A DNA stretch of 54,051 nt from Clostridia bacterium (GTDB taxonomy: Bacteria > Bacillota > Clostridia > UMGS1883 > UMGS1540). The stretch spans positions 1-54,051 of the forward strand of contig JAZSIR010000014.1 in NCBI GenBank assembly GCA_045533905.1, given 5' to 3'. The position numbers and the translations under genes were made by a program. Shown here piece after piece: positions 1,949 through 32,195 of the stretch. Every line of letters starts with the position of its first letter. Position 1 is the stretch's first letter. Below the pieces are notes generated by a model. The model was not told where the DNA came from, searched no databases, and was given only the letters and a program-made list of their open reading frames with translations.

Positions 1949-3304
1949 TTATGTTTCGAAGGTATAGTACACATCAACCACATCGTCCGTAATGACGATT
2001 TTGTCCACACAGCTTTTTATCACCTTTTTCTTCTCGCGCATGGAAAGATACGGCCAGCTATCGCGCACGGCGCTGATTTCCTCGCGCGTTTTTTGCCGCG
2101 CCGCTTCTTCTTTTTGCGTGTTTTCTTCTTCTTTTATGCGGTCTTCGAGTGCAGAAAGCGTTTTCTTTCGGTCGCGGATGGCAGAAAGCAGAAGTTCATC
2201 GCCGCTGTCGCCGTACAAATCATACAGCCTTCGAAGCTTCGTGCGTGCCGAAGAGAGCTGGCTTTTAAGAATTTCCAAAACGCTCTCGCCCTCCTCTTCG
2301 CCCTCTTCCCGCCGAACAGAAACGGAAAATAAATCTTCGAGCACAATTTCTTCGATTTCCCAAGCGCTATGGCGTTTATTATCACAATTTGGGTCGCGCA
2401 CAAGATGGCGTTTCGACTTATCGGCGGAGTAGCACACAATTTTGCAGTCCGTTTTGCCCCACTTCTGATACCGCATTTTCGCGCCGCACTTACCGCAAAC
2501 GAGTAGTCCCGTTAAAAGATAGCCCCCTCCGCTTATCGGGCGGCGCGCACGCTCTCGCATGGCCGCCATCGTCTTTTCGTATGTTTCAAGACTTATAATG
2601 GGCGTGTGTCTTCCTTTATACTCGACGCCGTTATACACAATATACCCCGCGTTCGTCTTCCGTTTTAAGATTTGCAGTGCCAGATGCTCATAGCGAAGAC
2701 CGAGGACTTGGGCGATTTTATCGGTGGAATAGCCTGCGAGGTACAAATCATACGCCCTTTTCACCGTTTCGGCATCCGCATTTGGCACGAGGATTCCCTT
2801 TTCGCGGTCATAATCGTATCCGAAGGGAATTTTGCCGCCACCGGGCCAGTAGCCGTTTTTCACGCGTTCCTGCATCCCCAGGCGCGTGCGTTCGCGTATC
2901 GTTTCACGCTCAAGCTGCGCGAAGGCGGACATAATGCCGAGCATAGCGCGCCCGATAGGCGTGGAGGTATCCATATTTTCGTTCATCGAAATGAACGTGA
3001 CGCCCTCGGGGTTAAAAACATCTTCTATTAAATAGAGCGTGTCTTTTTGCGAACGGGAGAGACGGTCAAGCTTATAGACGATGACGTGCGAAATTTTCCC
3101 GTTTTGCACATCCTCGATAAGGCGGCGCATCGCAGGACGGTCAATATTACTGCCCGTGTAGCCGCCGTCAATATACAGCTCCCGTTCCGGAATTTCGCGC
3201 GCCGTGCAAAACGCCGAAAGAAGCTCCTTCTGTGCCTCAATGGAATACCCTTCATCCCTTTGCCCTTCCGTGGAAACACGGATATAAAGTGCCGCACGCT
3301 TCAT
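1949..3304 (-). CDS. Large serine recombinase (resolvase + recombinase + Zn-ribbon + coiled coil; SpoIVCA/integrase-like)
   Basis: YIRVST catalytic Ser, DRLSRS, FAQLERETIRERT, PFGY, CGKCG...C...C. Confidence 0.96.
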   Translation of the reverse strand: MKRAALYIRVSTEGQRDEGYSIEAQKELLSAFCTAREIPERELYIDGGYTGSNIDRPAMRRLIEDVQNGKISHVIVYKLDRLSRSQKDTLYLIEDVFNPEGVTFISMNENMDTSTPIGRAMLGIMSAFAQLERETIRERTRLGMQERVKNGYWPGGGKIPFGYDYDREKGILVPNADAETVKRAYDLYLAGYSTDKIAQVLGLRYEHLALQILKRKTNAGYIVYNGVEYKGRHTPIISLETYEKTMAAMRERARRPISGGGYLLTGLLVCGKCGAKMRYQKWGKTDCKIVCYSADKSKRHLVRDPNCDNKRHSAWEIEEIVLEDLFSVSVRREEGEEEGESVLEILKSQLSSARTKLRRLYDLYGDSGDELLLSAIRDRKKTLSALEDRIKEEENTQKEEAARQKTREEISAVRDSWPYLSMREKKKVIKSCVDKIVITDDVVDVYYTFET

Positions 3305-3432
3305 TATGCCTCTTCTTCGCTCGCACGACGGCGACTGTCGGCCGCGGCAACCGCCTCGCGAATGGCCTCGTTTTCTACAAGAGGCGGTATGGTTTTTATC
3401 TTTTCGCCGTTAACATAGCGGTTAATACGCAT
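3304..3432 (-). CDS. 42-aa small protein coupled to the recombinase (not in ORF track)
   Basis: MRINRYVNGEKIKTIPPLVENEAIREAVAAADSRRRASEEEA; GAAAGGAG RBS; its TAA overlaps the recombinase ATG (TAATG). Confidence 0.75.
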   Translation of the reverse strand: MRINRYVNGEKIKTIPPLVENEAIREAVAAADSRRRASEEEA

Positions 3433-3452: not shown

Positions 3453-3482
3453 CAGTATTCCCCCAAACAGGAAAAAGAATAC
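3453..3482 (-). promoter_or_regulatory. sigF-type (forespore) promoter of the small ORF-recombinase operon
   Basis: GTATT-15 bp-GGGAATACTG versus sigF consensus GYATA-N15-GGnnAnAnTR. Confidence 0.7.
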
Positions 3483-14015: not shown

Positions 14016-14387
14016 TTACTTCAGTTCTACCTTTGCGCCTACTTCTTCGAGCTTTGCCTTGTAGCCTTCTGCATCGTCCTTGCCTACGCCTTCTTTGATG
14101 GGCTTCGGAGCATTGTCTACGAGGTCCTTTGCTTCCTTAAGACCAAGGCCGGTGATCTCGCGAACAACCTTAATAACCTTAATCTTTTCTGCGCCTGCAT
14201 CGGCGAGAATTACGTCAAATTCTGTCTTTTCTTCTGCAGCTGCAGCGCCATCGCCACCTGCTGCAACAACTGCAACCGGTGCAGCTGCGCTTACGCCGAA
14301 TTCTTCTTCCATCATCTTAACGAGTTCGGCAACTTCTAACAACTTGAGTTCTTTGATATCAGCAATAATCTGTTCGAGTTTGCTCAT
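14016..14387 (-). CDS. rplL: 50S ribosomal protein L7/L12
   Basis: [29 protein letters not shown]. Confidence 0.99.
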
Positions 14388-14418
14388 TTTGAATATCCTC
14401 CTTTAATTTCTTTCTTTT

Positions 14419-15075
14419 TTATTCCGCATCAGCTGCGGGTGCTTCTTCTGCCGGAGCTTCTGCAGCGGGTGCTGCTTCTTCTACCGGTGCTGCTTCTGCA
14501 GCGGGTGCTTCTACAGCTTCAGCGGCTGCTTCTGCAGCGGGTGCTGCTTCTGCTGCCTTTGCTGCGGCTGCTTCAGCCGGCTCTACACCACCGTCGACAA
14601 GAGCCTGCAATGTACGTACCAGGTTGGAAACCGGTGCATTGAGGCTGCCCATAATCTTCGCGATAAGTGTTTCGCGAGACGGTGTAGCTGCGAGCTTGTT
14701 GATTTCTTCGATGGAGATTACGTTACCATCGAGGAAACCTGCCTTGATTTCAAGGTTCGGATTGGTCTTGGCAAAATCTGCCAGAACCTTTGCGGGTGCT
14801 ATCGGATCGTCGCTGAGGGCGAGAGCAGTCGGGCCGTTCAGAGCGGCATCAAGGCCTTCCTTATAGCCAACTACTTCAGCTGCGCGGCTTGTGAGGGTGT
14901 TCTTTACTACCTTGTAGTAAACGCCTGCTTCACGAAGCTTTACACGGAGCTGTGTATCTTCCTCAACCGTAAGACCGCGATAGTCTACGATGACGCCGGC
15001 CGTTGCGTTCTTCATCCTTTCAGCGAGGTCTGCAACAACCGCCTTCTTCTGTTCCAAAATCTTTGCGCTTGGCAT
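14419..15075 (-). CDS. rplJ: 50S ribosomal protein L10 with Ala/Glu/Pro-rich C-terminal extension
   Basis: DYRGLTV, KVVKNTL, GPTA, LEIKAG; start MPSAK after GGAGG. Confidence 0.98.
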
Positions 15076-15095
15076 ATCTTTCACCTCCCATATAA

Positions 15096-15205
15096 AAAGG
15101 TTCTCTATCCAAATGCAGACAGAGAACCGTTTTCATTTCCGAAACGATTGCCTCCTCGGCGGGACTTACGCCTTCGCGAGGCGGCCTGCTGTCTGCGGAC
15201 GGACA
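15096..15205 (-). ncRNA. L10 leader (rplJL autoregulatory attenuator)
   Basis: CCGCAGACAGCAGG...TAAGTCCCGCCGAGG core followed by GGTTCTCT...AGAGAACCTTTT terminator. Confidence 0.85.
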
Positions 15206-15228
15206 AATGTAACTATTAGGGTTTTCGA

Positions 15229-15924
15229 TTATTCGCCAACCTTTGCGGGGTTGAGCTTGATGCCGGGGCCCATTGTGCTTGCAATAGCAACGCTGCGCAG
15301 GTACTGGCCCTTTGCTGCGGACGGCTTTGCCTTAACAACGGCATCCATCAGCGTCTTGAAGTTTTCGGCGAGCTTTTCTTTGCCGAAGGAAACCTTACCG
15401 ATGGGGCAGTGGATGATGTTTGTCTTATCAAGACGGTATTCAATCTTACCGGCTTTGATATCTGCAATAGCCTTTGTAAGATCCATAGTTACCGTGCCTG
15501 CCTTCGGGTTCGGCATAAGGCCCTTAGGACCAAGTACACGACCGATGCGGCCAACAAGACCCATCATGTCAGGTGTGGCAACAACAACGTCGAATTCGAA
15601 CCAGTTTTCACCCTGAATCTTCTGTACCAGTTCTTCGCCGCCTGCGAAATCTGCGCCTGCAGCTTCAGCTTCTGCAACCTTGTCGCCCTTAGCGAAAACA
15701 AGAACGCGAACCTTTTTACCGGTACCGTGCGGCAGAACAACTGCGCCTCTAACCTGCTGGTCAGCGTGACGGGAGTCAACACCCAGCTTGATGTGCGCTT
15801 CTACCGTTTCATCAAATTTTGCCTTTGCGCTTTTTACAGCAATGTCAAAAGCTTCGTCAATATCGTAAAGCTTGCCGTGTTCGATAAGCTTTGCACTTTC
15901 CTGATAATTCTTTCCTCTTTTCAC
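15229..15924 (-). CDS. rplA: 50S ribosomal protein L1
   Basis: [34 protein letters not shown]. Confidence 0.99.
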
Positions 15925-15938
15925 GAATATACCTCCTT

Positions 15939-15965
15939 GTGGTTACGCGGAATAAATCCTCCCAC
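15939..15965 (-). promoter_or_regulatory. L1-binding operator upstream of rplA
   Basis: GTGGGAG-hairpin-ACCAC immediately before the RBS. Confidence 0.7.
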
Positions 15966-16394
15966 TTAATCTTCTTCTACAACAATACCCATGCTGCGAG
16001 CGGTACCTGCAATCATACTCATAGCCGCTTCAATACTTGCAGCATTCAAATCCGGCATCTTCATTTCGGCAATTTCCTTGACCTGGCTCTTCTTAATAGT
16101 AGCAACCTTCGTCTTGTTCGGAACGCCGCTGCCGCTCTCAATTTTACATGCTTTCTTTAAGAGAACTGCTGCCGGAGGCGCTTTCGTGATAAACGTAAAC
16201 GACCTGTCTGCATACACGGTGATAACAACCGGGATGATGAGACCTGCGTCCTTTGCTGTTTTCTCGTTGAATTCCTTGGTGAACTGTACAATGTTTACAC
16301 CGTACTGACCAAGTGCGGGACCAACCGGGGGTGCGGGCGTAGCTTTACCTGCGGGAATCTGCAGTTTAATGTAGCCCATGATTTTCTGTGCCAT
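15966..16394 (-). CDS. rplK: 50S ribosomal protein L11
   Basis: [34 protein letters not shown]. Confidence 0.99.
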
Positions 16395-16414
16395 TTTTAC
16401 TTCCTCCTAATATC

Positions 16415-16454
16415 GTGGTATCTGGCGGATATGCCCTTTAGCACATCCTCCCAC
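16415..16454 (-). promoter_or_regulatory. L1-binding operator upstream of rplK
   Basis: GTGGGAG-GATGTGC..GCATATC-..ACCAC. Confidence 0.75.
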
Positions 16455-16475
16455 CATAAAAAGCCCGGGGGCTTA

Positions 16476-16997
16476 TTATGACAATGCTTCTACCTGGTGG
16501 AACTCAAGTTCAACAGGCGTTTCGCGGCTGAACATAGAAACACATACACGGAGCTTGCGCTTTTCCATGTTGATTTCTTCGATGACGCCGACAAAACTTT
16601 CGAGGGGCCCATCCGTTACGCGGACATTGTCGCCCACCTCAAAATCAAACTTCACCACCTGTGCTTCAACGCCCATAGCTTCCACTTCCGCATCGGAAAG
16701 CGGCACGGGCTTGGAGCCGGGACCTACAAAGCCTGTACAGCCGCGCGTGTTGCGCACAACGTACCAGCTTTCGTCCGTCATAACCATTTTAATGAAAACA
16801 TAGCCGGGATAGATTTTGCGAAGAACAACCTTCTTCTCGTTTTCCTTCTGCTCCACTACCTCTTCCATCGGTACGCGGATATCCTGGAAAAGCTCTTGCA
16901 TCCCACGGTTTTCAACGGTTTTTTCAATATTTGCTTTTACTTTGTTTTCGTAGCCCGAATATGTATGGACTACATACCATTTTGCATTACCGGCCAT
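16476..16997 (-). CDS. nusG: Transcription antitermination factor NusG
   Basis: WYVVHTYSGYENKV, PGYV, KOW motif, RETPVEL. Confidence 0.99.
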   Translation of the reverse strand: MAGNAKWYVVHTYSGYENKVKANIEKTVENRGMQELFQDIRVPMEEVVEQKENEKKVVLRKIYPGYVFIKMVMTDESWYVVRNTRGCTGFVGPGSKPVPLSDAEVEAMGVEAQVVKFDFEVGDNVRVTDGPLESFVGVIEEINMEKRKLRVCVSMFSRETPVELEFHQVEALS

Positions 16998-17053
16998 ACT
17001 TTTCCCACACGCCCCTTCGGGGCATATGCCTCCTTATTCAGAAATATCGAAAA

Positions 17054-17248
17054 CTACCCCATAAGGACCTTGAAGCCCCAGGAGAATACAGCATCCAAAA
17101 TCCAGATGCCTGCACCGATAACCAGAATAGAAAGAATAACAATACCGGTATTGTTTATAAGCTGCTTCTTTGTAGGCCAAATGACCTTCTTAACCTCAGC
17201 CTTGAGGTCTCTGAAGAACTTGGCAATCTTAGAAAAAAACTTTTTCAT
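17054..17248 (-). CDS. secE: Preprotein translocase SecE
   Basis: EVKKVIWPT followed by a single TM helix; precedes nusG. Confidence 0.95.
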   Translation of the reverse strand: MKKFFSKIAKFFRDLKAEVKKVIWPTKKQLINNTGIVILSILVIGAGIWILDAVFSWGFKVLMG

Positions 17249-17264
17249 ACCTACTATACCTACC

Positions 17265-17414
17265 TTATTTTGTTTCCTTGTGTGCGGTATGCTTCTTGCA
17301 GAATCTGCAATACTTATTCATTTCGATGCGATCCGGCGTGTTCTTCTTGTTCTTCATGGTGTCGTAGTTACGCTGTTTGCATTCGGAGCATGCCAAAGTA
17401 ATTTTTACTCTCAT
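17265..17414 (-). CDS. rpmG: 50S ribosomal protein L33, Zn-binding type (not in ORF track)
   Basis: [49 protein letters not shown]. Confidence 0.97.
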
Positions 17415-17467
17415 GTATATACACCTCCCACATACATAAAAAAAGACTTCTTTTGAGAAGTAAAGCT

Positions 17468-17496
17468 ATTGTATCACAGCTTTCCTCATTTGTCAA
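17468..17496 (-). promoter_or_regulatory. sigmaA promoter of rpmG-secE-nusG
   Basis: TTGACA-17-TACAAT with extended TG. Confidence 0.85.
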
Positions 17497-17510
17497 TATT
17501 TTTTTTGAAT

Positions 17511-18317
17511 TTATTTTAATTCTTCCCCAATTTCGGCAATTCTTGCCTCAATTTCCTCGGGACGGACAACCGCAAGTGCCGAGAAGGGATAGCGAAGTGC
17601 CCGCTCCATCATCTCGATAGCTTCTTCCTTACGGCCCATTGCATAAAGCGTTTCGCCCGCGTTAAAATACGGTATCGGTGCGCCGAGGCGCTTATCGGTA
17701 AGGTCCTCGTAAATCTCCCAGCTCTTCTCAAGGTCACCGAGGAGACGATAGTTTAAGGCGAGATTATCGGCAATTGCTTCATCGAATCGGTCAAAATACT
17801 GTGCTTCTTCGTTTACCTCCAGTGCGCGCTGCAGCTGCCCGTCTAAAATCAAAAACTGCCCGAGCGTGCCGTAGAGCGCCACATCCTTGCCGTTTTTCAG
17901 CTGTGTTTCCAAAATGGTGATGGCCTTTTTAAGGTCGCCTTTCTGGAAGGCCAGAAGCGAGCGGTTTACCGCCGCACGCGTTTCGAGCTCCGGCGTCATC
18001 TTCTTATGGGCCGCTGCCTCGAATGCGATTTCTGCTTTTTCTGTTTCGCCGGCTTTAAGGCACATAAAGCCGTAATATAAAATGTAATCCACGCGAAGGC
18101 GGCCGGATTTATATGCTTTTTCCATAAGAGCCAGCCCCTTTTTCGGAGACTCGGCATATTTCTTTGCGCCCTGCACCATCATAATGTCCGGCAATTTGAT
18201 GATGACGGTGATGAGAATGTCCAGTGCAAGGGCTGCAAGTCCCCAGCGGATGCCGCCGGTCATAAATGCGCAAAGCACCACAGCTGCCGGCAGAAACAAC
18301 GTCAGTATCTGCTGCAT
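17511..18317 (-). CDS. Membrane-anchored TPR protein
   Basis: N-terminal hydrophobic helices followed by TPR-like helical repeats. Confidence 0.75.
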   Translation of the reverse strand: MQQILTLFLPAAVVLCAFMTGGIRWGLAALALDILITVIIKLPDIMMVQGAKKYAESPKKGLALMEKAYKSGRLRVDYILYYGFMCLKAGETEKAEIAFEAAAHKKMTPELETRAAVNRSLLAFQKGDLKKAITILETQLKNGKDVALYGTLGQFLILDGQLQRALEVNEEAQYFDRFDEAIADNLALNYRLLGDLEKSWEIYEDLTDKRLGAPIPYFNAGETLYAMGRKEEAIEMMERALRYPFSALAVVRPEEIEARIAEIGEELK

Positions 18318-18319
18318 AT

Positions 18320-19210
18320 CTATCCCTTCCTTTCAAAAAACTGTCTTGCTGTTTCCGTATCCTGCCGGATTCTTTCCCGAAGTGCTTCGACACTCTGAAA
18401 TTTCTGCTCCGGCCGCAAAAATTCGAGGAGGGTAATTTCCGCCATTTCGCCATACACCTCACCCGAAAAATCCAGAAGATGGCTTTCTGCTCTCGGCACG
18501 GCCTTTTCTACCGTGGGATTTTCGCCGATGTTCGTAACGCTCGCGTATTCTTTGCCCAGAACACGTGTGCGGCTTATATACACGCCGCGGCGCGGCAGAA
18601 GAAGCGCACCCGGAATTTCTATATTTACTGTAGGAAAGCCTAAAACTCTGCCGAGGTGCTTCCCCTCGGCCACCCGCCCTTCGATGGCATACGGGCGAAA
18701 GCTTGCGGCGGCGATTTTTTGTACATCGCCTTCTTTAAGGAATTTGCGAAGGCGCGTTGAGGAAAGTGGCTCACCTTCAAATTCCACACTTTCGAGAATT
18801 TCGCACTCGATGCCGCGCGCGCGGCAAAGGGTCGAAAGCGAGGCCGCATCGCCTGCGGCGTTTTTCCCGAAGCGGAAGTTAAAGCCTGCTGCCACATACC
18901 GGGCATCCATTTCCTCCACCAGAATTTTATCCACAAATGCCTCCGGCGAAAGAGAGAGAATTTCCATACCGCGTGTTTCCGCGAATACGCGCTCCACCCC
19001 CATCTCCTGAATCCTTCGGGTCTTCATCGCCTCCGTCATCAAAAGTGCGGGCGGCTTTTCGGGCGCGAGGAGTGTGCGTGGATGCGGCGAGAAGAAATAT
19101 GCCACACTTTGCAGGCCGTGTATCTCTGCATACGCCGTCATATTTTCCAGAAGCTTTGCATGCGCTTTATGTACCCCGTCAAAATTGCCGAGGGCAATGG
19201 CTGTGCCCAT
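18320..19210 (-). CDS. ribF: Riboflavin kinase/FAD synthetase
   Basis: GNFDGVH, NFRFG, SSTRLR, GFPTVN, NPT, ESHLLDF. Confidence 0.97.
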   Translation of the reverse strand: MGTAIALGNFDGVHKAHAKLLENMTAYAEIHGLQSVAYFFSPHPRTLLAPEKPPALLMTEAMKTRRIQEMGVERVFAETRGMEILSLSPEAFVDKILVEEMDARYVAAGFNFRFGKNAAGDAASLSTLCRARGIECEILESVEFEGEPLSSTRLRKFLKEGDVQKIAAASFRPYAIEGRVAEGKHLGRVLGFPTVNIEIPGALLLPRRGVYISRTRVLGKEYASVTNIGENPTVEKAVPRAESHLLDFSGEVYGEMAEITLLEFLRPEQKFQSVEALRERIRQDTETARQFFERKG

Positions 19211-19228
19211 ACTGTTCTCCTTTATATA

Positions 19229-20092
19229 TTAGTAGAAACTCGTAATCATTTTCAGAATATGTGTTTCCCCGTTTTGCATCCCGCGGGAAACACAAAGAAG
19301 CGTGCCATCCGCAGAAAAAACGGCAAATTCGCCGTCTTTTTGGTACGGATTCAAAATCGCCACCCCGTTTCGCACCTTTTTTTCCTCTGCCTCGGAGGTG
19401 ATTACCTTTGGAAGATGTGAAAATACAGTGGCGGTATCTAAAATATGCTTTTCGGGTTCTTCTTCAAACACCGAAAGCAAAACGGAATTTTCTTTTGTGA
19501 ATGCGCCGCACTCGGTGCGCGAGAGCGCCGTCATATGCGCACCGCAGCCAAGTGCCTCACCAATGTCCTTACAAAGTGTGCGGATGTACGCGCCTTTTGA
19601 ACATTCCACCAAAAAGGTGACATACGGCGCTGCGATTTCCACGGGGGAAATACTGTAAAACGTAACCTCGCGCGGCTTTCTCTCCACCACGATGCCTTGC
19701 CGCGCCAAATCGTAAAGACGCTTTCCTTCGTGGTGCACCGCGGAATACATCGGTGGAATCTGGTGGCAGACGCCTACAAAAGAACGAAGCGCCGCCAAAA
19801 TTTCTTCCTCGCTGCATGTGACCGGTTTTTCCGCAAGAATTTCACCGGTGCTGTCCTCGGTGTCGGTGGTTTTGCCAAGGCACAGCGTCGCAAGATATGT
19901 CTTTCTGGCCGCTACCACAAAATCCACAGCATGTGTGGCTTTGCCGATGCAAATCGGCAAAACGCCTTCGGCCATAGGGTCGAGCGTGCCGGTATGCCCT
20001 ACGCGGCGTGTGCCTGTCGCGCGTCTTACGCGCGAGACCACATCGTGGCTCGTAAGCCCCGTCGGCTTCCAGATATTAACTATGCCGTCCAT
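19229..20092 (-). CDS. truB: tRNA pseudouridine(55) synthase
   Basis: GHTGTLDPMAEGVL, PPMYSA, CSKGAYIRTL. Confidence 0.98.
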   Translation of the reverse strand: MDGIVNIWKPTGLTSHDVVSRVRRATGTRRVGHTGTLDPMAEGVLPICIGKATHAVDFVVAARKTYLATLCLGKTTDTEDSTGEILAEKPVTCSEEEILAALRSFVGVCHQIPPMYSAVHHEGKRLYDLARQGIVVERKPREVTFYSISPVEIAAPYVTFLVECSKGAYIRTLCKDIGEALGCGAHMTALSRTECGAFTKENSVLLSVFEEEPEKHILDTATVFSHLPKVITSEAEEKKVRNGVAILNPYQKDGEFAVFSADGTLLCVSRGMQNGETHILKMITSFY

Positions 20093-21026
20093 AGGTCTCC
20101 CCTAATTTCTCAATAATTTTTTCCTGCCACTCGGCAAGCGTACCCGAAACTGTGGCACCGGCTGCGCGGGCGTGCCCGCCGCCGCCGAGCGTCTTACAAA
20201 ACGCCGCCGCATCGATATACTGATTGGTGCGCATGGAAATTTTAATTTCGCCGTCCTTTTCGCGAAGGAGAACGCCCGTTTCCACCCCGCGCACAGCGCG
20301 AAGTAAACCGGAAAGGTTTGCCGTGTCCTCGTCCTTTGCCCCGAATGCGGCAATCTCGGCTTCGGAAAGTGCGGCAATCGCCGTTTTTCCATCGTGCAAA
20401 ATCGCGGCGCGGCTCATCACCGCCGCCTCGAGACGGATTTTTTCAATAGAATTCTGTTCAAAAACATTGTGGCACACCTTTGCGCTCTCAGCGCCTGCCT
20501 CCAGAAGGTCTGCGGCAAGGCGGTGGGTTTGCGCGGTGGTGTTGGAATAGCGGAAACCGCCCGTATCGGTCACAAGACCTGTGTAGAGAATCGTGGCCGC
20601 CTTCTCATATGAAACGCCTGCTTCTTCAAAGAGCGCCGCCACAAGCTCTGCTGTGGCTGCGGCAGAAGGGTCTATAACGGCAACGTCGCCAAACCCCTCG
20701 TTCGTCATATGATGGTCAATCACAAGTTTTACGCGCGCAGATGCAAAAAGCGGTGCGCGATTTCCTAATCGGAAAATATCGCCCGAGTCAACAGCCACGG
20801 CCGTATCGAACGCTTTTTCTTCCCCCGCGTACACGGTGAATACGTCGCCAAGGAAGAGAAGGTCTTCCCGCGGCGGCTCTTCCGTATAAATGGTATAGGG
20901 AATATTGTACGTTTCCAAAAGCTTCCCAAGCGCTGCGGAAGAAGCAAGTGCATCCCCGTCCGCGCTCTTATGCGGCAGAATGACTACGTTTTTTGCAGCC
21001 TTTAGTGCTTTTAAAAGTGCTTTCAT
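20076..21026 (-). CDS. nrnA: DHH/DHHA1 oligoribonuclease/pAp phosphatase
   Basis: DGDA, IDHH, DTGGF, GGGH. Confidence 0.9.
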   Translation of the reverse strand: MKALLKALKAAKNVVILPHKSADGDALASSAALGKLLETYNIPYTIYTEEPPREDLLFLGDVFTVYAGEEKAFDTAVAVDSGDIFRLGNRAPLFASARVKLVIDHHMTNEGFGDVAVIDPSAAATAELVAALFEEAGVSYEKAATILYTGLVTDTGGFRYSNTTAQTHRLAADLLEAGAESAKVCHNVFEQNSIEKIRLEAAVMSRAAILHDGKTAIAALSEAEIAAFGAKDEDTANLSGLLRAVRGVETGVLLREKDGEIKISMRTNQYIDAAAFCKTLGGGGHARAAGATVSGTLAEWQEKIIEKLGETYGRHS

Positions 21027-21391
21027 TCTGTTTCCTCGCTCTTTTCTGCAGTTCCCATCACGTCTTTTAAAACCTTGTTGATGTGCGCGCCGTAGGCAAT
21101 GGAATGGTCTGCCTTAAAAATAAATTCCGGCACAGCACGAAGCTTTAAACGGTTTCCGATTTCGCGGCGGACAAAGCCGGATGCGGCTTTGAGCGCGGAA
21201 AGCGTATTTTTTTCTTCCTCTTCGCTTCCCATAACGCTTATATAGGCTGTGGCGTAGCGAAGGTCACGTGTGACCTCCACCTGCACAACGCTTACAATAT
21301 CTGCCATACGAGGGTCCTTTAAGGTGCGGATAACCGCGCCAAGTTCCCTTCTGACTTCTTCATCTATGCGATTTTGTCTGTATCCCGCCAT
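21023..21391 (-). CDS. rbfA: Ribosome-binding factor A
   Basis: LKDPR, VEVTRDL, LRAVPEF. Confidence 0.97.
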   Translation of the reverse strand: MAGYRQNRIDEEVRRELGAVIRTLKDPRMADIVSVVQVEVTRDLRYATAYISVMGSEEEEKNTLSALKAASGFVRREIGNRLKLRAVPEFIFKADHSIAYGAHINKVLKDVMGTAEKSEETE

Positions 21392-21400
21392 AGGCGCCTC

Positions 21401-23656
21401 CTAACGGGCGACTTCCTCCATAATGGAGCATTCCACAATATCGCCCTCTTTAATATCATTAAACTTTTCAAAGCTCATACCGCATTCATAGCCGGAGGCA
21501 ACTTCCTTCACATCGTCCTTAAAGCGGCGAAGTGTAGAAAGGTCGCCCTCGTGGATAACGATACCGTCACGTACAATACGAACACCGCAGCCGCGCTGAA
21601 TCTTACCGTCCTGCACGTAGCAGCCTGCAATCGTGCCGACGCCGCTGACCTTGAAGGTCTGGCGGATTTCCGCGTGGCCAATCGTAACTTCCTTGTATTC
21701 CGGTGCAAGCATACCCTTCATAGCGGCCTCGATTTCCTCGATAGCCTGGTAGATTACGCGGTACATGCGCATATCGACCTTGTGCATCGCGGCGGCGCTT
21801 CTGGCACCCGAGTCGGGACGGACGTTAAAGCCAACGATGATGGCATTCGAAGCCGTGGCAAGCATAACATCCGATTCCGTAATAGCACCGACGGCGCCGT
21901 GGATTACGCGAACGCGAACTTCTTCGTTCGAGATTTTTTCAAGCGACTGTGTAACAGCTTCTACCGAGCCGCGAACGTCTGCCTTTACAATAATATTGAG
22001 ATCCTTTACATTGCCTTCCTGAATCTGGCTAAACAGATCTTCGAGGGAAACAATGCTTGTGGACTGTCTGTGTGCATCCTGTGCTTTCTGGCGGCGTGCT
22101 TCCACAACGTTCCTTGCCATCTTTTCATCCTTGACGGCATAGAACAAATCGCCACCCTCGCAAACCTCGTTCATACCCGTGATTTCAACAGGTGTGGACG
22201 GGCCTGCTTCCTTAAGGCGGTTGCCCTTATCGTCAAGCATTACGCGAACGCGACCCATAGAGGTGCCGGAAACAATCGTGTCGCCTGTACGGAGGGTACC
22301 GTTTTGTACGAGCACCGTGGCAACCGGACCGCGTCCTTTATCAAGACGTGCTTCGATAACGGTACCGCGGGCAAGACGGTCGGGATTTGCGCGCAGCTCC
22401 TTCATATCGGCAACGAGAATTACCATTTCGAGGAGGGTATCAATATTCTGATGCTGCTTTGCGGAAATCGGCACACAAATCGTGTCGCCACCCCAGGCTT
22501 CGGGGATGAGGCCGTATTCCGTAAGCTCCTGCATAACTCTGTCGGGGTTTGCGTTTTCTCTGTCGATTTTGTTAATGGCGATAACGATGCTGACACCTGC
22601 GGCCTTTGCATGGTCGAGGGCTTCCACGGTCTGCGGCATGATGCCGTCATCTGCGGCTACAACGATAATCGCAACGTCTGTAACCTGTGCACCGCGGGCG
22701 CGCATCGCCGTGAAGGCTTCGTGACCGGGGGTGTCAAGGAATGTGATGCGACGGTCGCCAAGGTGCACACTGTATGCACCGATGTGCTGGGTAATACCGC
22801 CGGCTTCTGTGGACGTAACGTTTGCAGAACGGATCGCGTCGAGAAGCGAAGTTTTACCATGGTCAACGTGACCCATAACTACAACAACCGGATCGCGCGG
22901 CACGAGCGAGGCTTCATCGTCTTCGTCATCCCCAAACAGTCTGTCTTCATCTGTAATAATGATTTCTTTTTCGACGATGGCGTTCATATCTTCGCCGATA
23001 AGTGCCGCCGTGTCGAAATCAATCGTCTGGCTGACGGAGGCCATAATGCCGAGCTGCATCAGGCGCTTAATAACTTCTGTGGCGCTTTCGCCAAGTTTGG
23101 CCGCAAAATCACCAACGGAAATTTCATCCGGCACCATAACGGTTTTCTTCTCCGGCTTCTTTTCCTTCTTTGCGGGTGCTTCCTGTACTTCCTGCGCCTG
23201 GGGGGCGCCCTTCTGACGCTTCTTGTCCTTTTTATTCTTCTGCTTTGCAGAGGCCTTCTCCGTCATTTCGGGGTCGACCATTTCTTCAATCTTTTCGTTC
23301 TGTTCAATCTTCTCGAGGTCCACAACCGAGCTGCGGGTATCGACATAGCGGCTCTTTGGTGCTTCCTCTTCCTTTTCCTCGGGGGCCGGTGTTTCTTCTA
23401 TTGCCGGCACTTCCTCTACCACAACCTCGGGCTCCGGCTTTTCTACCTTTTTCAAAAATTCCGTAATGTCCGAGCCGTCATCATACGCCGCGGTGTAATA
23501 ATCAAATATTATGTCCATATCGGCGTTTGTTAATGTACTCATATGGTTTTTTGTGCCCCTATCGTATTTGATGAGTACATCAATAACGTCTTTATTGACA
23601 AGATCCAAATCCTTTGCAATTGAGTGAATTCTCGGTTTATTTACTGTTTTAGCCAC
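21401..23656 (-). CDS. infB: Translation initiation factor IF-2
   Basis: [30 protein letters not shown]; probable GTG start at 23656. Confidence 0.99.
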
Positions 23657-23960
23657 TAAAGCCACCCCCATAAATTTTCAAAATTGCCGCCGCAAATCCC
23701 GTGTCCCGAATCCCTAAGACGGAAACACGGCCGCGCCCTGTAAGATGCGCAAGTCCGTCCACCGTGCCGAAGGGAATCAGCGGTACGCCGCTTGTTTTGC
23801 ATTTATCGCGCATACGTTTTTTCGTATTCTCGGAAGCGTCCTCCGCCACGATGACAAGGTGTACGCGCCTCGTGCGAAGAAGTGCCGTGCACTCCTCACT
23901 GCCGAAAGCCGCGCGGCCGGCTTTGACGCACAAACCAATCATACCTTCCAGTTTATGCAT
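23649..23960 (-). CDS. ylxQ: L7Ae-family RNA-binding protein (YlxQ)
   Basis: [19 protein letters not shown]; position in the nusA-infB operon. Confidence 0.9.
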
Positions 23961-24213
23961 ATATCTCTCCTAATTGTGTGTAAACTTCTGCATCCACGCG
24001 GCAGGAAAGCGCACGCTCCAGTCTCTTCTGTGTGATGGCTTTCTCTACACACTCGCGGTTTTTGCAGATGTATGCGCCGCGCCCGTCTGTCCTTCCTTTT
24101 TCATCGAGGTAAACGGAGCCTTCGGGCGAGCGCGCCACGCGCTGCATCTCCTCCATCGGATGTGCCGTACGGCACGAGATGCACATACGCATTTTTGCAG
24201 GTTTATTCGCCAA
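23953..24213 (-). CDS. ylxR: YlxR/RnpM RNA-binding protein
   Basis: RMCISC, GRGAYIC. Confidence 0.92.
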   Translation of the reverse strand: MANKPAKMRMCISCRTAHPMEEMQRVARSPEGSVYLDEKGRTDGRGAYICKNRECVEKAITQKRLERALSCRVDAEVYTQLGEIYA

Positions 24214-25254
24214 TTAGAACACCCCGCCTACTTCCTTATCGCTCTTGATATCAATCTTCCAGCCGGTAAGCTTTGCCGCAAGACGTGCATTCTGGCCTTC
24301 CTTGCCGATGGCAAGCGAAAGCTGGAATTCCGGTACGACCACTTCGGCTGCGTTGTTTTCTTTATCGAGTGTTACGCGAAGCACCTTTGCGGGGCTGATG
24401 CTTTCGGTGATAAATACGGTCGGGTCTTCGCTGTACTTTACAATGTCAACCTTTTCTTCGCCAAGGCCGCGCAAAACGGCGGTAACGCGGGCACCCTTCT
24501 GGCCTACGCAGGCACCGACAGCGTCAACATTCGGGTTGTTCGAGCAAACGGCAATTTTCGAGCGCAAACCGGCTTCTCTTGCGATGCTCTTGATTTCTAC
24601 CGTGCCGTTTAAGATTTCCGGCACTTCGCGCTCAAAGAGGCGACGAACAAGACCGGGGTGTGTACGGCTGACGGTAATCTGCAGCCCCTTCGCGGTGTTT
24701 CTGACTTCCGTTACATATACAAGGAGCTTCTGGCCCGGGCGATATACTTCGCCGGCCGCCTGCTCGTGAATCGGCATAATCGTTTCGGTGGAACCGATTT
24801 CGATGAGAACGCCGCGTCTTTCATTTTTCTGGACAGTACCCAAAATTACATCGTTTTCCTTGCTCTGGTATTCGGAGTACATTCTGCCTCTTTCGGCTTC
24901 GCGGATATGCTGCACCAGCATCTGCTTTGCGTTCTGTGCGGCAATGCGGCCGAAGTTCTTCGGCGTTGTCTCCATCGTAACCACGTCGCCCACCTTATAC
25001 TTTGCATTGATATTCTGCGCTTCTTCAAGCGTCATCTCCATCGAGGAATCTTCTACTTCTTCCACAACGGTTTTCTGGGTGTGTACGCGAATGTTTCCGT
25101 TATCGTCGATTTCCACTTCCACATTCTCGCCTGCATTATAATACTTTCTGTATGCGCTTGCAAGTGCCGTGCGGAGTGTTGCCAAAAGGTCTTCCTTATT
25201 GATTTTCTTTTCCTTCTCCAGAAGTTCCAGTGCCGTCATCAGTTCATTTGCCAT
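24214..25254 (-). CDS. nusA: Transcription termination factor NusA
   Basis: FGRIAAQ, SRTHP, EVPEI, LAIGKEGQNARLA; start MANELM. Confidence 0.99.
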   Translation of the reverse strand: MANELMTALELLEKEKKINKEDLLATLRTALASAYRKYYNAGENVEVEIDDNGNIRVHTQKTVVEEVEDSSMEMTLEEAQNINAKYKVGDVVTMETTPKNFGRIAAQNAKQMLVQHIREAERGRMYSEYQSKENDVILGTVQKNERRGVLIEIGSTETIMPIHEQAAGEVYRPGQKLLVYVTEVRNTAKGLQITVSRTHPGLVRRLFEREVPEILNGTVEIKSIAREAGLRSKIAVCSNNPNVDAVGACVGQKGARVTAVLRGLGEEKVDIVKYSEDPTVFITESISPAKVLRVTLDKENNAAEVVVPEFQLSLAIGKEGQNARLAAKLTGWKIDIKSDKEVGGVF

Positions 25255-25270
25255 TTTGTTTTCCGTCCTT

Positions 25271-25735
25271 TCAAAAATTTCCGTCGAACACGGTGCGCAC
25301 ACGGGACACCAGTCCGTTTTCAAAACGGCGCTCTTCGCCGTCCTCTGTTTCTACTGTGATATGTGTTTTATCATATGCCCGCAAAATACCGGTGAGATTT
25401 TTCTTGCCGTCCTGCGGAGCATAAAACCGAAGCTCTACTGTTTCTCCCATAGCCGTCAGAAAGTGCCACTCGCGTGACAAAATTCTTTCAAGTCCCGGGG
25501 AAGAAACTTCCAGAAGGTACGCTTCCTCGATGGGATCCGTCTCATCGAGTGCAGTGCTGAGTGCGCGGCTTACCGCCTCGCAGTCCTCCAGATCCACACC
25601 ATTCTCCCCATAGAGAAACACGCGTAAAAACCAGTTTGGGCCTTCTTTTTTGTACTCTACATCGTACACCGAAAGGCCGCGCTCGGTCGCAATGGGCGTT
25701 GCCATTTCTTCCACTGTTTTTTCGATTTTAGCCAT
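25271..25735 (-). CDS. rimP: Ribosome maturation factor RimP
   Basis: DCEAVS, YLLEVSSPGLER. Confidence 0.97.
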   Translation of the reverse strand: MAKIEKTVEEMATPIATERGLSVYDVEYKKEGPNWFLRVFLYGENGVDLEDCEAVSRALSTALDETDPIEEAYLLEVSSPGLERILSREWHFLTAMGETVELRFYAPQDGKKNLTGILRAYDKTHITVETEDGEERRFENGLVSRVRTVFDGNF

Positions 25736-25763: not shown

Positions 25764-25833
25764 TATGAGGGCGGCAAAATCTGCCGCCCTCATATACCAT
25801 TCGTATTATAGCACACATTTTCTGGCTTTGCAA
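25764..25833 (-). promoter_or_regulatory. sigmaA promoter and leader hairpin of the rimP-nusA-infB operon
   Basis: TTGCAA-17-TATAAT with extended TG (25805-25833); 13-bp stem TATGAGGGCGGCA/TGCCGCCCTCATA. Confidence 0.8.
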
Positions 25834-25866: not shown

Positions 25867-25910
25867 ATTTTCACACGGGTACGTTCATTGGCACGGCGTA
25901 TGTTGAAAAT
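25867..25910. other. Candidate serine-recombinase attachment site at the sigG breakpoint
   Basis: 44-bp dyad: ATTTTCA (25867-73) / TGAAAAT (25904-10) plus inner CGT/ACG and C/G pairs, centred on TT 25888-89 (coding strand CC-AA-TG). Confidence 0.7.
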
Positions 25911-26176
25911 TTTACGCCGTGGCTCGTATCAAAATTATCAATTGCCTTCATAAGGCCGATGCAGCCGACCTGAAAAAGGTCGTCCACATGCTCGCCGCGA
26001 TTTTGAAACCTTTGAATGACGCTTAAAACAAGGCGCAAATTTCCCTCAATAAAGCTTTCGCGCGCCGCGGTGTTTCCTTTCTTGATTTCTTGCAGAAGTT
26101 TTTCCTTCTCTTCTTCACTCAAAATTGGGAGTTTTGCGGTATTCACGCCGCTGATATCCACTTTATGCATTGCCAT
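25871..26176 (-). pseudogene. sigG: 5' fragment (about 97 conserved codons) of forespore sigma factor SigG; split or truncated gene
   Basis: KVDISGVNTAKLPIL, GNLRLVLSVIQRF, DDLFQVGCIGLMKAIDNFD, KFSTYAVPM, then NVPV-stop where SigG normally continues with IIGEIRRYLRD; AGGAGG RBS. Confidence 0.93.
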
Positions 26177-26197
26177 GGCAAATCCTCCTCTATATAC

Positions 26198-26245
26198 AAA
26201 AATCCCCTTCAAGGATAGTATCCGTTTGAAGGGGATTTTTTATAC
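26198..26245 (-). promoter_or_regulatory. sigF/sigG-type promoter of sigG interleaved with a 15-bp inverted repeat
   Basis: GTATA-19 bp-ATACTA; AAAAATCCCCTTCAA / TTGAAGGGGATTTTT. Confidence 0.65.
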
Positions 26246-30013: not shown

Positions 30014-30493
30014 CTATAGGTCACTTATATTTACAATCTCAACATTCCTTTTTTTCGAAAATTCTACTGTTTGGGCGGCGCCGCCGAAGGGATGCTTTAC
30101 ATAACAAAGAAGAACATCACATTCCTGCGCCATATATTCGTTGCACTTTAGAATGCGGTATCTTAGGGGCGTGTTCTCGGGGATATCTGCAAGAAGCAGT
30201 CCGTCAAATGCCTTATAATACTCTTCCCTCGCTTCGTCTATCGCCCGCGTCAGATAGGGAAATACTAAATATAATTTTATATCCCGATAGGTAGTTTTCA
30301 GTTCTCTATCCCGATAGGTAGTTTTCAGTTCTCGCACGGCTTTGGCCGCCGCGCGGTCAAATGCGCCGTAATTTCCCACCCAGAATTCCTCTACACCATT
30401 ATAGAGTATCTGCCGCTCTATTGCCGCTTTTAGTTTTTCGTGCACATCCTCATATAGTTTACTATGCCCTGCAAAAAAGCATCTCTTATACAT
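30014..30493 (-). CDS. SLOG/DUF1273-like nucleotide-binding protein
   Basis: CFFAGH, G.YGAFD, NEYMA...D.LL.YV, GGAAQT. Confidence 0.7.
   Translation of the reverse strand: MYKRCFFAGHSKLYEDVHEKLKAAIERQILYNGVEEFWVGNYGAFDRAAAKAVRELKTTYRDRELKTTYRDIKLYLVFPYLTRAIDEAREEYYKAFDGLLLADIPENTPLRYRILKCNEYMAQECDVLLCYVKHPFGGAAQTVEFSKKRNVEIVNISDL
30280..30333. repeat. Perfect 27-bp tandem duplication, in frame (RELKTTYRD x2)
   Basis: TATCCCGATAGGTAGTTTTCAGTTCTC at 30280-30306 and 30307-30333. Confidence 0.97.
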
Positions 30494-30650
30494 ACGATAC
30501 CTCTATTTAGATTGCAAAAGCAACCATTTTGATTGTATTATACAATATTTTTCCCACAAATGCAAACATATTGTTTGTATTTGAGAATATTTTGATTGTC
30601 GATAGCATCCAAAATACTGGATATACTATCTAGTATAGAGGTGATTACAA

Positions 30651-30878
30651 ATGAAAAATAAAAATTTCGACATATGGCTTGGCATAGGACTAAACATTCT
30701 TCATTATAGAAAAGAACAGGGTATGACACAGATGCAACTCGCAGAAAAATGTGACATAAGCAGAACCTATATGCAGAAAATTGAAACTGCCGCGTGTTCT
30801 TGCACCTTGGATACACTCATCGATATTGCCGCTGCACTCGAGATCCCACTCAAAAAACTATTTGAATTTAAAGATTGA
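30651..30878 (+). CDS. XRE-family HTH regulator
   Basis: RKEQGMTQMQLAEKCDISRTYMQKIE. Confidence 0.9.
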   Translation: MKNKNFDIWLGIGLNILHYRKEQGMTQMQLAEKCDISRTYMQKIETAACSCTLDTLIDIAAALEIPLKKLFEFKD

Positions 30879-30928
30879 CAAGCAAAAAAGCCGCATCATT
30901 TCGATGCGGCTTTTATCTTTCTGTTTTC

Positions 30929-30980
30929 TATTTCCCAAAAATGAAAATTTATTGACTTTGGGAAATAAATATGCTATACT
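30929..30980 (+). promoter_or_regulatory. sigmaA promoter with operator-like 11-bp inverted repeat
   Basis: TTGACT-17-TATACT; TATTTCCCAAA (30929-39) / TTTGGGAAATA (30957-67). Confidence 0.7.
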
Positions 30981-31001
30981 ATGTACGAGGTGAGAATACT
31001 T

Positions 31002-32195
31002 ATGAAGCTGATAGAACGTGAAACTTATTTAAATAAACTGATAAACGTTATCGGCACTCCCGACATTAAAGTTATAACAGGTGTACGACGAAGTGGTAAA
31101 TCAAAGCTACTGGAAGCGTTCAAGGATTATGTGTCTGAACATATTGCGAATAGCAATGTTGTTCATATTAACTTTAACCTTGCCGAGTTTGACGAGCTTA
31201 AAAACTATAAAGCTTTAAATCAATATATAGAAGATGCGTATAGCAAAGGAAAAGATAATTTCATTCTTATTGATGAAGTGCAAATGTGCGACGGTTTTGA
31301 GCTTACCATCAACAACCTACATGCAACCGAGAAGTACGATATTTATATCACCGGATCCAACGCATTCCTTTTAAGCTCCGACCTCGCAACTTTGTTTACG
31401 GGAAGAACTTTCGAAATAAAGGTATATCCTTTCTCTTTCTCTGAATATGTACAATATTTTGGATGTACCGATAATCACGCCACTTTTGACAATTATATAA
31501 AAGAAGGTGGCATGGCAGGTTCTTACCTTTACAAAGACCAAGAAGCACGGTACGACTATATAAAAAACATTTACGATACATTAATCGTAAGGGATATACG
31601 GACTAAATATAAAATCAGAAATCCTATCCTTATGGACAGGATTTCGAGCTTCCTTATGGATAATATCGCAAACCTGACTTCCGCAAGAAGTATTACCGAT
31701 ACACTGACCGGCCATAAAGATAAAATCAATCATAAGACAGTCGGCAAATACATTGAATATTTGTGTAATGCCTTTGCTTTCTACAAAGTACGCAGATATG
31801 ATATTAAAGGCAAGAAGTATTTATCTACGAATGATAAATATTATCTCTCCGACCACACATTCAGATACGCAACACTCGGCACCAAAAATATGGACTACGG
31901 CAGAGTTATTGAAAACATTGTTGCTCTCGAACTACTGAGAAGAGGGTATGAAGTCTATGTAGGTGTTCTTTATAAGAAGGAAATCGACTTTGTTGCTATT
32001 AAGCGTAATGAAAAGATTTATATTCAGGTATCGGATAACATAAGCGACGATAAAACCTTTTCAAGAGAAGTAAGTCCTCTCTTAAAAATACAAGATGCAT
32101 ACCCTAAAATGGTTATTGCCCGCACACGACACGAGGCGTATCAATATGAAGGCATTAAAATAATCGACGTTGCTGATTGGCTATTAGATACCTAA
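31002..32195 (+). CDS. AAA+ ATPase with DUF4143-type C-terminal domain
   Basis: GVRRSGKS, IDEVQ, TGSN, KYYLSD, EN.V..EL, EIDFVA, YIQVS. Confidence 0.9.
   Translation: MKLIERETYLNKLINVIGTPDIKVITGVRRSGKSKLLEAFKDYVSEHIANSNVVHINFNLAEFDELKNYKALNQYIEDAYSKGKDNFILIDEVQMCDGFELTINNLHATEKYDIYITGSNAFLLSSDLATLFTGRTFEIKVYPFSFSEYVQYFGCTDNHATFDNYIKEGGMAGSYLYKDQEARYDYIKNIYDTLIVRDIRTKYKIRNPILMDRISSFLMDNIANLTSARSITDTLTGHKDKINHKTVGKYIEYLCNAFAFYKVRRYDIKGKKYLSTNDKYYLSDHTFRYATLGTKNMDYGRVIENIVALELLRRGYEVYVGVLYKKEIDFVAIKRNEKIYIQVSDNISDDKTFSREVSPLLKIQDAYPKMVIARTRHEAYQYEGIKIIDVADWLLDT

Follow-up and report, generated by a model that had tools for sequence, protein, structure and literature searches.

A split sigG gene on two contigs

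The window, the whole 54,051-nt stretch of DNA analysed here, carries on its minus strand the 5′ half of sigG (25871..26176), the gene of a forespore sigma factor. The half gene encodes 101 aa, consisting of SigG residues 1-97, NVPV and a stop codon; the SigG part ends with FSTYAVPM, after which come the four foreign codons. The top NCBIfam matches of the ORF at 25871-26176 are SigG models, aligned over positions 1-98 of 258. The ORF is preceded by a ribosome-binding site (RBS) with the sequence GAGGAGG (26184..26190, minus strand) and by a forespore-type (sigma-F/G-like) promoter motif (26217..26245, minus strand) that overlaps a hairpin. The earlier note on this DNA had described an undecayed SigG N-terminal part with an RBS and its own promoter that stops after FSTYAVPM, and the ORF, the profile matches and the motif are all present. 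A forespore-type motif precedes 8 of the 11 sigG 5′ halves examined, and its sequence suggests that the promoter would be read by sigma-F. The inverted repeat at 26208-26241 overlaps the sigG promoter, and similar repeats occur in several relatives.

The DNA after attL, the recombination site at which the 5′ half ends, consists of essential genes (infB, nusA and ribosomal protein genes). From attL to the integrase runs a host housekeeping block (14016..25735, minus strand) with rimP, nusA, infB, truB, ribF, nusG, rplK, rplA, rplJ and rplL. A sigma-A-like promoter lies just past attL, before rimP (25805..25833, minus strand), and a comparable motif was found at 7 of the 11 loci examined in the same family (f1). 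The flanks of the two sigG halves in the genome of the window (G000) contain no mobile DNA, and the neighbours on the att side vary from species to species. Most sigG 5′ halves of the family f9 remain behind sigE; contig C8 of G000 (L404) carries spoIIGA-sigE with no sigG behind it, as do the relatives with an intact gene G009 and G011. Upstream of sugar genes in the window lies a small, ordinary-looking island (30014-32195) that comprises the gene of an HTH regulator and an ATPase-like ORF of 404 aa.

A SigG profile search of G000 found the missing part on another contig, outside the window (C2:30723-31208, model positions 91-254), and no full-length sigG; the remaining profile matches are sigF-, sigA-, sigE- and sigK-like. 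The 3′ half (C2:30732-31211, plus strand) has no start codon of its own, begins at Met97 and is preceded by a matching attR, with a symporter gene before attR and mutS2 after the 3′ half. Joining the two halves at their common core preserves the reading frame. Thus the start-less 3′ part behind a matching half-site that the earlier note predicted is present, and the complete sigG elsewhere that would have spoken against a split was not found in G000. A near-consensus sigma-A promoter just upstream of attR (C2:30657-30685) points into the region of the 3′ half and mutS2. Recombination of attL with attR would exchange the promoters of the genes downstream of attR.

The att sites and the crossover position

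The attL site (25868..25913, minus strand) comprises a B arm in sigG, a central CC and a P′ arm, and its partner attR lies on C2, where the attR core (C2:30725-30735, plus strand) stands ahead of the 3′ half. An 11-bp core is common to both sites (25885..25895, minus strand in the window). Within it, the central CC of the Pro96 codon (25890..25891, minus strand) probably marks the crossover, as indicated by the symmetry optimum and by the prophage G650. The earlier note had placed the centre of the breakpoint at AA, in a 44-bp dyad with 11 of 21 symmetric pairs; these counts were reproduced at 25867-25910, but 11 or more symmetric pairs occur at 0.9% of 200,000 random G000 positions, so the dyad alone is modest evidence. 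Moreover, AA as the crossover is ruled out by the symmetry of the reciprocal product about CC. In 10 f1 genomes, this product has on average 15.8 of 23 symmetric pairs about CC, compared to at most 8.4 about other centres, and six further genomes gave a mean of 17.7 of 23. Over all 16 genomes the mean is 16.5 of 23 pairs (range 12-21), whereas random joins attain 16 of 23 at a frequency of 1.5e-5.

The outer motif of the B arms sits 4 bp nearer to the centre than that of the P arms. As attL combines a short B arm with a longer P′ arm, its apparent centre is displaced by +2 (that of attR by -2), which accounts for the AA. In the prophage G650, CC is the sole sequence common to attL and attR, which pins the crossover to CC. 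The reconstructed attP forms an inverted repeat, at the centre of which lies a dinucleotide common to all four sites. A species-specific covariation of the two P arms, first noted by eye, was dropped after a permutation test in which cognate and non-cognate arms behaved alike (p 0.42 in f1, 0.60 in f9); the symmetry of the att arms is a conserved consensus. A search with the attL pattern returned nine stretches in genome contigs and none in metagenome contigs.

The window integrase, a small ORF and their promoter

The window encodes a large serine recombinase of 451 aa (1949..3304, minus strand), located 22.5 kb from attL, in which the catalytic (Resolvase), Recombinase and Zn-ribbon domains are all present. 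The residues Y7, R9, V10 and S11 are invariant in 60 integrase homologues, and we take S11 to be the catalytic serine. Comparison against the PDB matched only catalytic domains. The site geometry, which the earlier note had called typical of large serine recombinases, is thus accompanied by a matching serine integrase whose family lies adjacent to sigG halves. Other serine recombinases in G000 are a trio at C11:26734-29984, near a terminus-like skew switch, and a single gene at C8:37386-38273.

Directly upstream of the integrase lies a conserved ORF of 42 aa (3304..3432, minus strand), the stop codon of which overlaps the integrase start. An ORF of 40-50 aa occupies this position in 20 of 20 integrase carriers examined. 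The 42-aa ORF has no match in Pfam, the Atlas or solved structures, and it is a candidate recombination directionality factor of the integrase, judging from its position and conservation. The two genes appear co-transcribed from a putative forespore-type promoter (3454..3482, minus strand); a vegetative promoter of its own was not identified for the integrase. The promoter pattern was derived from the upstream regions of the carriers themselves, and its strict form fits 8 of 20 carriers. As an independent check, the pattern was compared with 865 other upstream regions of G000 and fits three of them, including those of spoIIR and ypeB. Both spoIIR and ypeB are forespore genes. For sigma-F promoters of C. 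difficile, a G upstream of the -10 element is given as a mark in the available text of PMC3789822.

Conservation of the split sigG among Clostridia

Examination of sigG in 61 relatives revealed 12 split and 47 whole genes, in addition to two incomplete genomes in which no sigG was found. The split relatives are all nine members of genus g1 and all three of genus g3, and their 3′ halves start at model position 91-92. The attL junction is readable in 10 of the 12; the contig of G021 ends just short of it, and a 5′ half was not found in G008, nor, outside these 12, in G215. The G021 contig (C125, L056) breaks off a few codons short of the att core. A population with mixed junctions could produce such an end, although this sign is weak.

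Integrase orthologues with 70-92% identity are present in exactly the 12 split genomes and in none of 29 others (41 relatives searched), and the top full-length match outside the split relatives reaches 39%. In a class-wide sample, the integrase was found in 14 of 399 genomes. In all eight integrase carriers outside f1 (7/7 in family f9 and one in f50), sigG is interrupted at this same position, with both halves found in seven of them. More distant homologues turned up in high-completeness samples of the class (2 of 395 other genomes) and of the phylum (1 of 400), with four candidates scored per genome, and these (G547, G574 and G669) all go with a whole sigG. Together with G452, which has the same cut and was counted on sigG alone, the split sigG is found in 21 genomes of three Clostridia families, all of which are metagenome assemblies and, where kin, not independent samples. 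The breakpoint and the dyad are conserved in relatives that were assembled separately, which rules out a misassembly; the earlier note had named a lack of such conservation, as well as a misassembly, as possible grounds for refutation.

For both sigG halves, dN is 0.03-0.18 and dS ranges from 0.9 to saturated (nine pairs), and the dN of the integrase is likewise far below its dS; both halves are under purifying selection. In all five split genomes tested, spoVT and the SASP genes are intact, and G000 has complete spoIIGA, sigE and sigK genes. The combination of saturated dS, low dN and intact sporulation genes excludes decay. The anti-sigma factor Gin/CsfB was found in 0 of 22 f1 genomes, split or whole alike, and its loss is therefore uninformative as a correlate of the split. 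Among individual genomes, G038 has two equal-scoring sigG copies (C6 and C41), the sigG match at G068:C45 stops at model position 192, and a sigF-like gene at G574:C2 was matched in two pieces.

Mobile relatives of the integrase family

In a FastTree phylogeny of 112 integrase sequences, rooted at the midpoint, the 12 f1 integrases form one clade with a support of 1.00, nested among mobile relatives. Of the best 80 metagenome integrase loci, 42 have in the fetched flank a sigG half cut at the Pro96 codon, six have sigF-like or unclear sigma halves, and one (L194) has a whole sigG. A sigG half also accompanies 6 of 79 viral integrase loci, and the integrases of GenBank phages reach 46.5% identity at best. 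The relatives include a tailed prophage of ~106 kb inserted in sigG (G650) and an element of ~77 kb with both sigG halves on one record (G651). As no virion gene was detected among the 23 ORFs scanned, G651 is not called a phage; in five viral records, no HK97-type portal was found.

Among 30 viral loci scanned, five carry the attP predicted from G651 unsplit, letter for letter, beside the integrase, and these five records are probably one element. The locus L434 likewise matches the attL arm of L227. Mobile members of the family therefore exist both integrated and excised. The free attP occurs in either orientation relative to the integrase, with GG or CC at its centre (L226, L229 and L237 versus L228, L233 and L235). 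Because the orientation of attP differs, the integrase abuts the 3′ half or converges on the 5′ half, depending on the locus. Among 20 attP-pattern matches in viral contigs, 19 had no integrase nearby and were rejected.

In G215 the small ORF is followed by the integrase, attR and the 3′ half, so that the integrase abuts attR. A compact arrangement is a 2.7-kb element with direct sites (L169), in the order sigE, 5′ half, a gene with a BMC domain, small ORF, integrase and 3′ half. The stretch L169:1432-4098, with the BMC-domain gene, a 70-aa ORF and the integrase, would be the simplest model system. Overall, the family may span a range from prophage through mini-element of 2.7 kb to a dissolved element fixed across genera. 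It would also offer natural integrases for which the att sites are known and directionality factors can be proposed.

Two further arrangements were observed. At L218-L224, a near-identical left arm of attR plus integrase stands before sigG-like, sigF-like or unclear sigma 3′ parts, as one element with several sigma genes as targets. At L133, L134, L318 and L320 (G108:C25 and G164:C16), an operon of sigF and two preceding genes that by their sequences are probably spoIIAA and spoIIAB starts directly after attL, with sigE and the sigG 5′ half on the other side of the site. Recombination there would part sigF from the promoters on the sigE/sigG side, possibly a switch that turns sigF off and sigG on.

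Orientation of the two halves

The sigG halves lie on different contigs in 19 of the 19 genomes in which both were found. In 14 of 14 f9 flanks, both halves are on the G-rich strand. As a rule the two halves are found on the leading strand, which is compatible with direct sites on a single replichore and with inverted sites on opposite replichores. One inversion that is symmetric about the origin and passes through the old element would place both halves on the G-rich strand. A simple inversion of this kind does not predict G010, where both halves apparently lie in lagging-strand blocks. In four of 20 genomes, dnaA shares a contig with one half; it is located upstream of the 5′ half in G018, G074 and G138 and downstream of the 3′ half in G010.

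Overlaps between contig ends in G000 included none that involve C7 or C2. Scaffolding of the halves against G007, which covered the first 20 kb of 31 contigs and nearly all of C28 and C29, failed, with synteny between the two genomes breaking every 5-25 kb. Gene order is thus scrambled at the 5-25 kb scale between these two g1 species. Several G000 contigs, including the one with dnaA, show almost no GC skew, leaving the orientation signal ambiguous. Among the 16 sequencing runs listed for the junctions, none contained half of the sequence words and none was of RNA. Four runs, with reads at 80-85% likeness, yielded mixed-species pieces and no usable junction.

A proposed model for the reconstitution of sigG

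Altogether, we propose that the split sigG is rejoined by reversible recombination in the forespore, with a probability of roughly 0.8 for inversion and for excision with reintegration taken together. The earlier note had suggested that sigG is rebuilt by site-specific recombination; the halves, the att sites and the integrase fit this suggestion, whereas in this lineage neither a rejoined sigG nor an attP junction was observed, which counts against it. In this model, sigma-F would turn on the small ORF and the integrase in the forespore, and the integrase together with the small protein would recombine attL with attR and so place a complete sigG downstream of its promoter. After loss of the small protein, the integrase by itself would act on attB and attP and restore the split state at or after germination. 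Directionality with and without a small partner has been demonstrated for SprA/SprB and CD1231/CD1234, as described in excerpts of PMC5499854 and PMC5025042. As the forespore chromosome is inherited and all 21 assemblies are split, the reaction is required to be reversible. The system would have originated from a prophage targeting sigG, the body of which has since been replaced by host chromosome. Further points count against our proposal: co-transcription of the small ORF and the integrase leaves a later solo action of the integrase without explanation, and the distant homologues in G547, G574 and G669, as well as L194, go with a whole sigG. The lack of covariation between the P arms, the origin of the promoter pattern in the carriers themselves, the distance of the integrase from attL in a genome with other serine recombinases, the 5′ halves missing from G008 and G215, and the strand of both halves in G010 belong to the same side.

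Between the two forms of the reaction, inversion of a large chromosomal segment is slightly favoured over excision and reintegration. We further consider it fairly probable that this is a programmed rearrangement of an inherited chromosome at each sporulation, in which a domesticated integrase inverts or excises an essential segment to make sigG and the change is undone at germination. Since both sites must be inside the forespore, synthesis of sigma-G could be tied to the progress of chromosome translocation. If so, the split would add a checkpoint at the transition from sigma-F to sigma-G, and the integrase would have turned into a fixed developmental gene of its host.

Direct repeats offer a tentative version of the same proposal, to which we give rather less than even odds, in which the forespore chromosome resolves into two circles, one with essential genes, that are fused again at germination. 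The three elements that carry both halves on a single record (the 2.7-kb L169, the ~77-kb G651 and the ~106-kb G650) all have them in direct orientation, and the absence of any reverted lineage among the 21 split genomes is consistent with a lethal exit. The location of both halves on the leading strand also fits, and the flip of both halves in G010 could be explained by one inversion spanning both. However, placing host DNA between direct sites would need at least two rearrangements, compared to one for inverted sites, and a failed reintegration would kill the spore.

It is very unlikely that the halves act without recombination, as separate polypeptides of a split sigma factor. The start of the 3′ half at Met97 and the sigma-A-like promoter that 7 of 12 f1 genomes have 73-84 bp before it would suit this idea. 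Yet no RBS was found near Met97 on C2, where the P arm, itself conserved, occupies the preceding 20 bases. In addition, conservation extends to the att arms and the integrase, and the cut presumably lies inside region 2. Equally unlikely is that joining is one-way, or that the spores using it are dead ends, such that reversal is needless. No vegetative promoter of the integrase has been identified, and the published sporulation cases are all one-way as far as the excerpts of PMC4191935 and PMC13492144 describe them. One-way joining, however, would yield descendants with a whole sigG, which appear in 0 of 21 assemblies, and both halves are nonetheless selected.

Even less probable is that the halves are joined by another recombinase of G000, the C11 trio or the C8 enzyme, with the window integrase a bystander. 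These enzymes are present, and the window integrase adjoins neither site; its tracking of the split and the position of its family against these att sites elsewhere favour it as the joining enzyme. The least probable explanation is a dead relic of prophage insertion in a non-sporulating lineage, or a misassembly, for which the exclusively metagenomic assemblies and the separate contigs would speak, but which the shared breakpoint, the selection on both halves and the intact sporulation genes largely refute.

Comparison with known recombination systems

A close likeness exists to skin and its recombinase SpoIVCA (CD1231 with CD1234) in sigK of Bacillus subtilis and Clostridioides difficile, where a sporulation sigma gene is likewise split by serine recombinase att sites (PMC5025042; bioRxiv 10.1101/2022.02.25.481979, both in excerpt). 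As here, the small partner in skin stands under a sporulation promoter; skin itself is described in the available parts of these papers as compact and dispensable (2.6-48 kb), with the recombinase at its edge and one-way excision in the mother cell. By contrast, in G000 the target is a forespore factor with a forespore-type motif, essential genes follow attL, the integrase is distant from the site, and reversal is required. Both systems split a sporulation gene, the frame of which is restored on joining. The recombinase is adjacent to a site only in G215 and in the mobile or compact relatives, the intervening DNA is not a compact dispensable element, and control appears not to be mother-cell-specific, given the target sigG and a motif common to spoIIR and ypeB. 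Accordingly, the split sigG works like skin but fails three of the defining features of skin.

SPbeta in spsM (SprA/SprB), gin in gerE, vfbin, vrin and yin likewise have an attP that is symmetric around a central dinucleotide, a small directionality factor and in-frame restoration at sporulation (PMC4191935, PMC5499854, PMC5595907, PMC10747680 and PMC6957869, as far as excerpted). The earlier note had held that the well-known interrupted sporulation genes are mother-cell genes; according to the available text of PMC6957869 almost all such elements are in mother-cell genes, and the spore genome keeps them because no excision occurs there. In the parts available of the sporulation-element papers and of two supplements of PMC6957869, sigG is not named among the interrupted genes. 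Genes with sigma-70 region 2 make up 12 of 1069 integrase targets in PMC10083194, the available text of which does not name sigG. No split sigG was found in the openly accessible full-text literature searched, in line with the remark of the earlier note that recombination of sigG is not an established system. Excision in the doomed mother cell only is the accepted reason why intervening elements are tolerated, and the split sigG breaks this rule. Because the rearranged chromosome is inherited, the switch must reverse, and it involves essential host DNA instead of a passenger.

Reversible active lysogeny also restores a gene that is later disrupted again in dividing cells, as described for phi10403S in comK of Listeria and SpyCIM1 in Streptococcus pyogenes (PMC13492144, in excerpt). 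Those cases concern prophages or remnants kept as episomes, outside any developmental germ line, whereas the sites in G000 have no mobile DNA (same source for the former). A prophage or remnant lies between the sites in G650 and not in G000.

Heterocysts are terminal cells. In the fragmented nif genes of Calothrix NIES-4101, far-apart parts are joined during differentiation, in part by inversion, with recombinases close to the repeats, as the accessible text of PMC11249958 reports. For gut Clostridia, calls of a ‘sigG pseudogene’ in assemblies can falsely suggest a non-sporulating organism.
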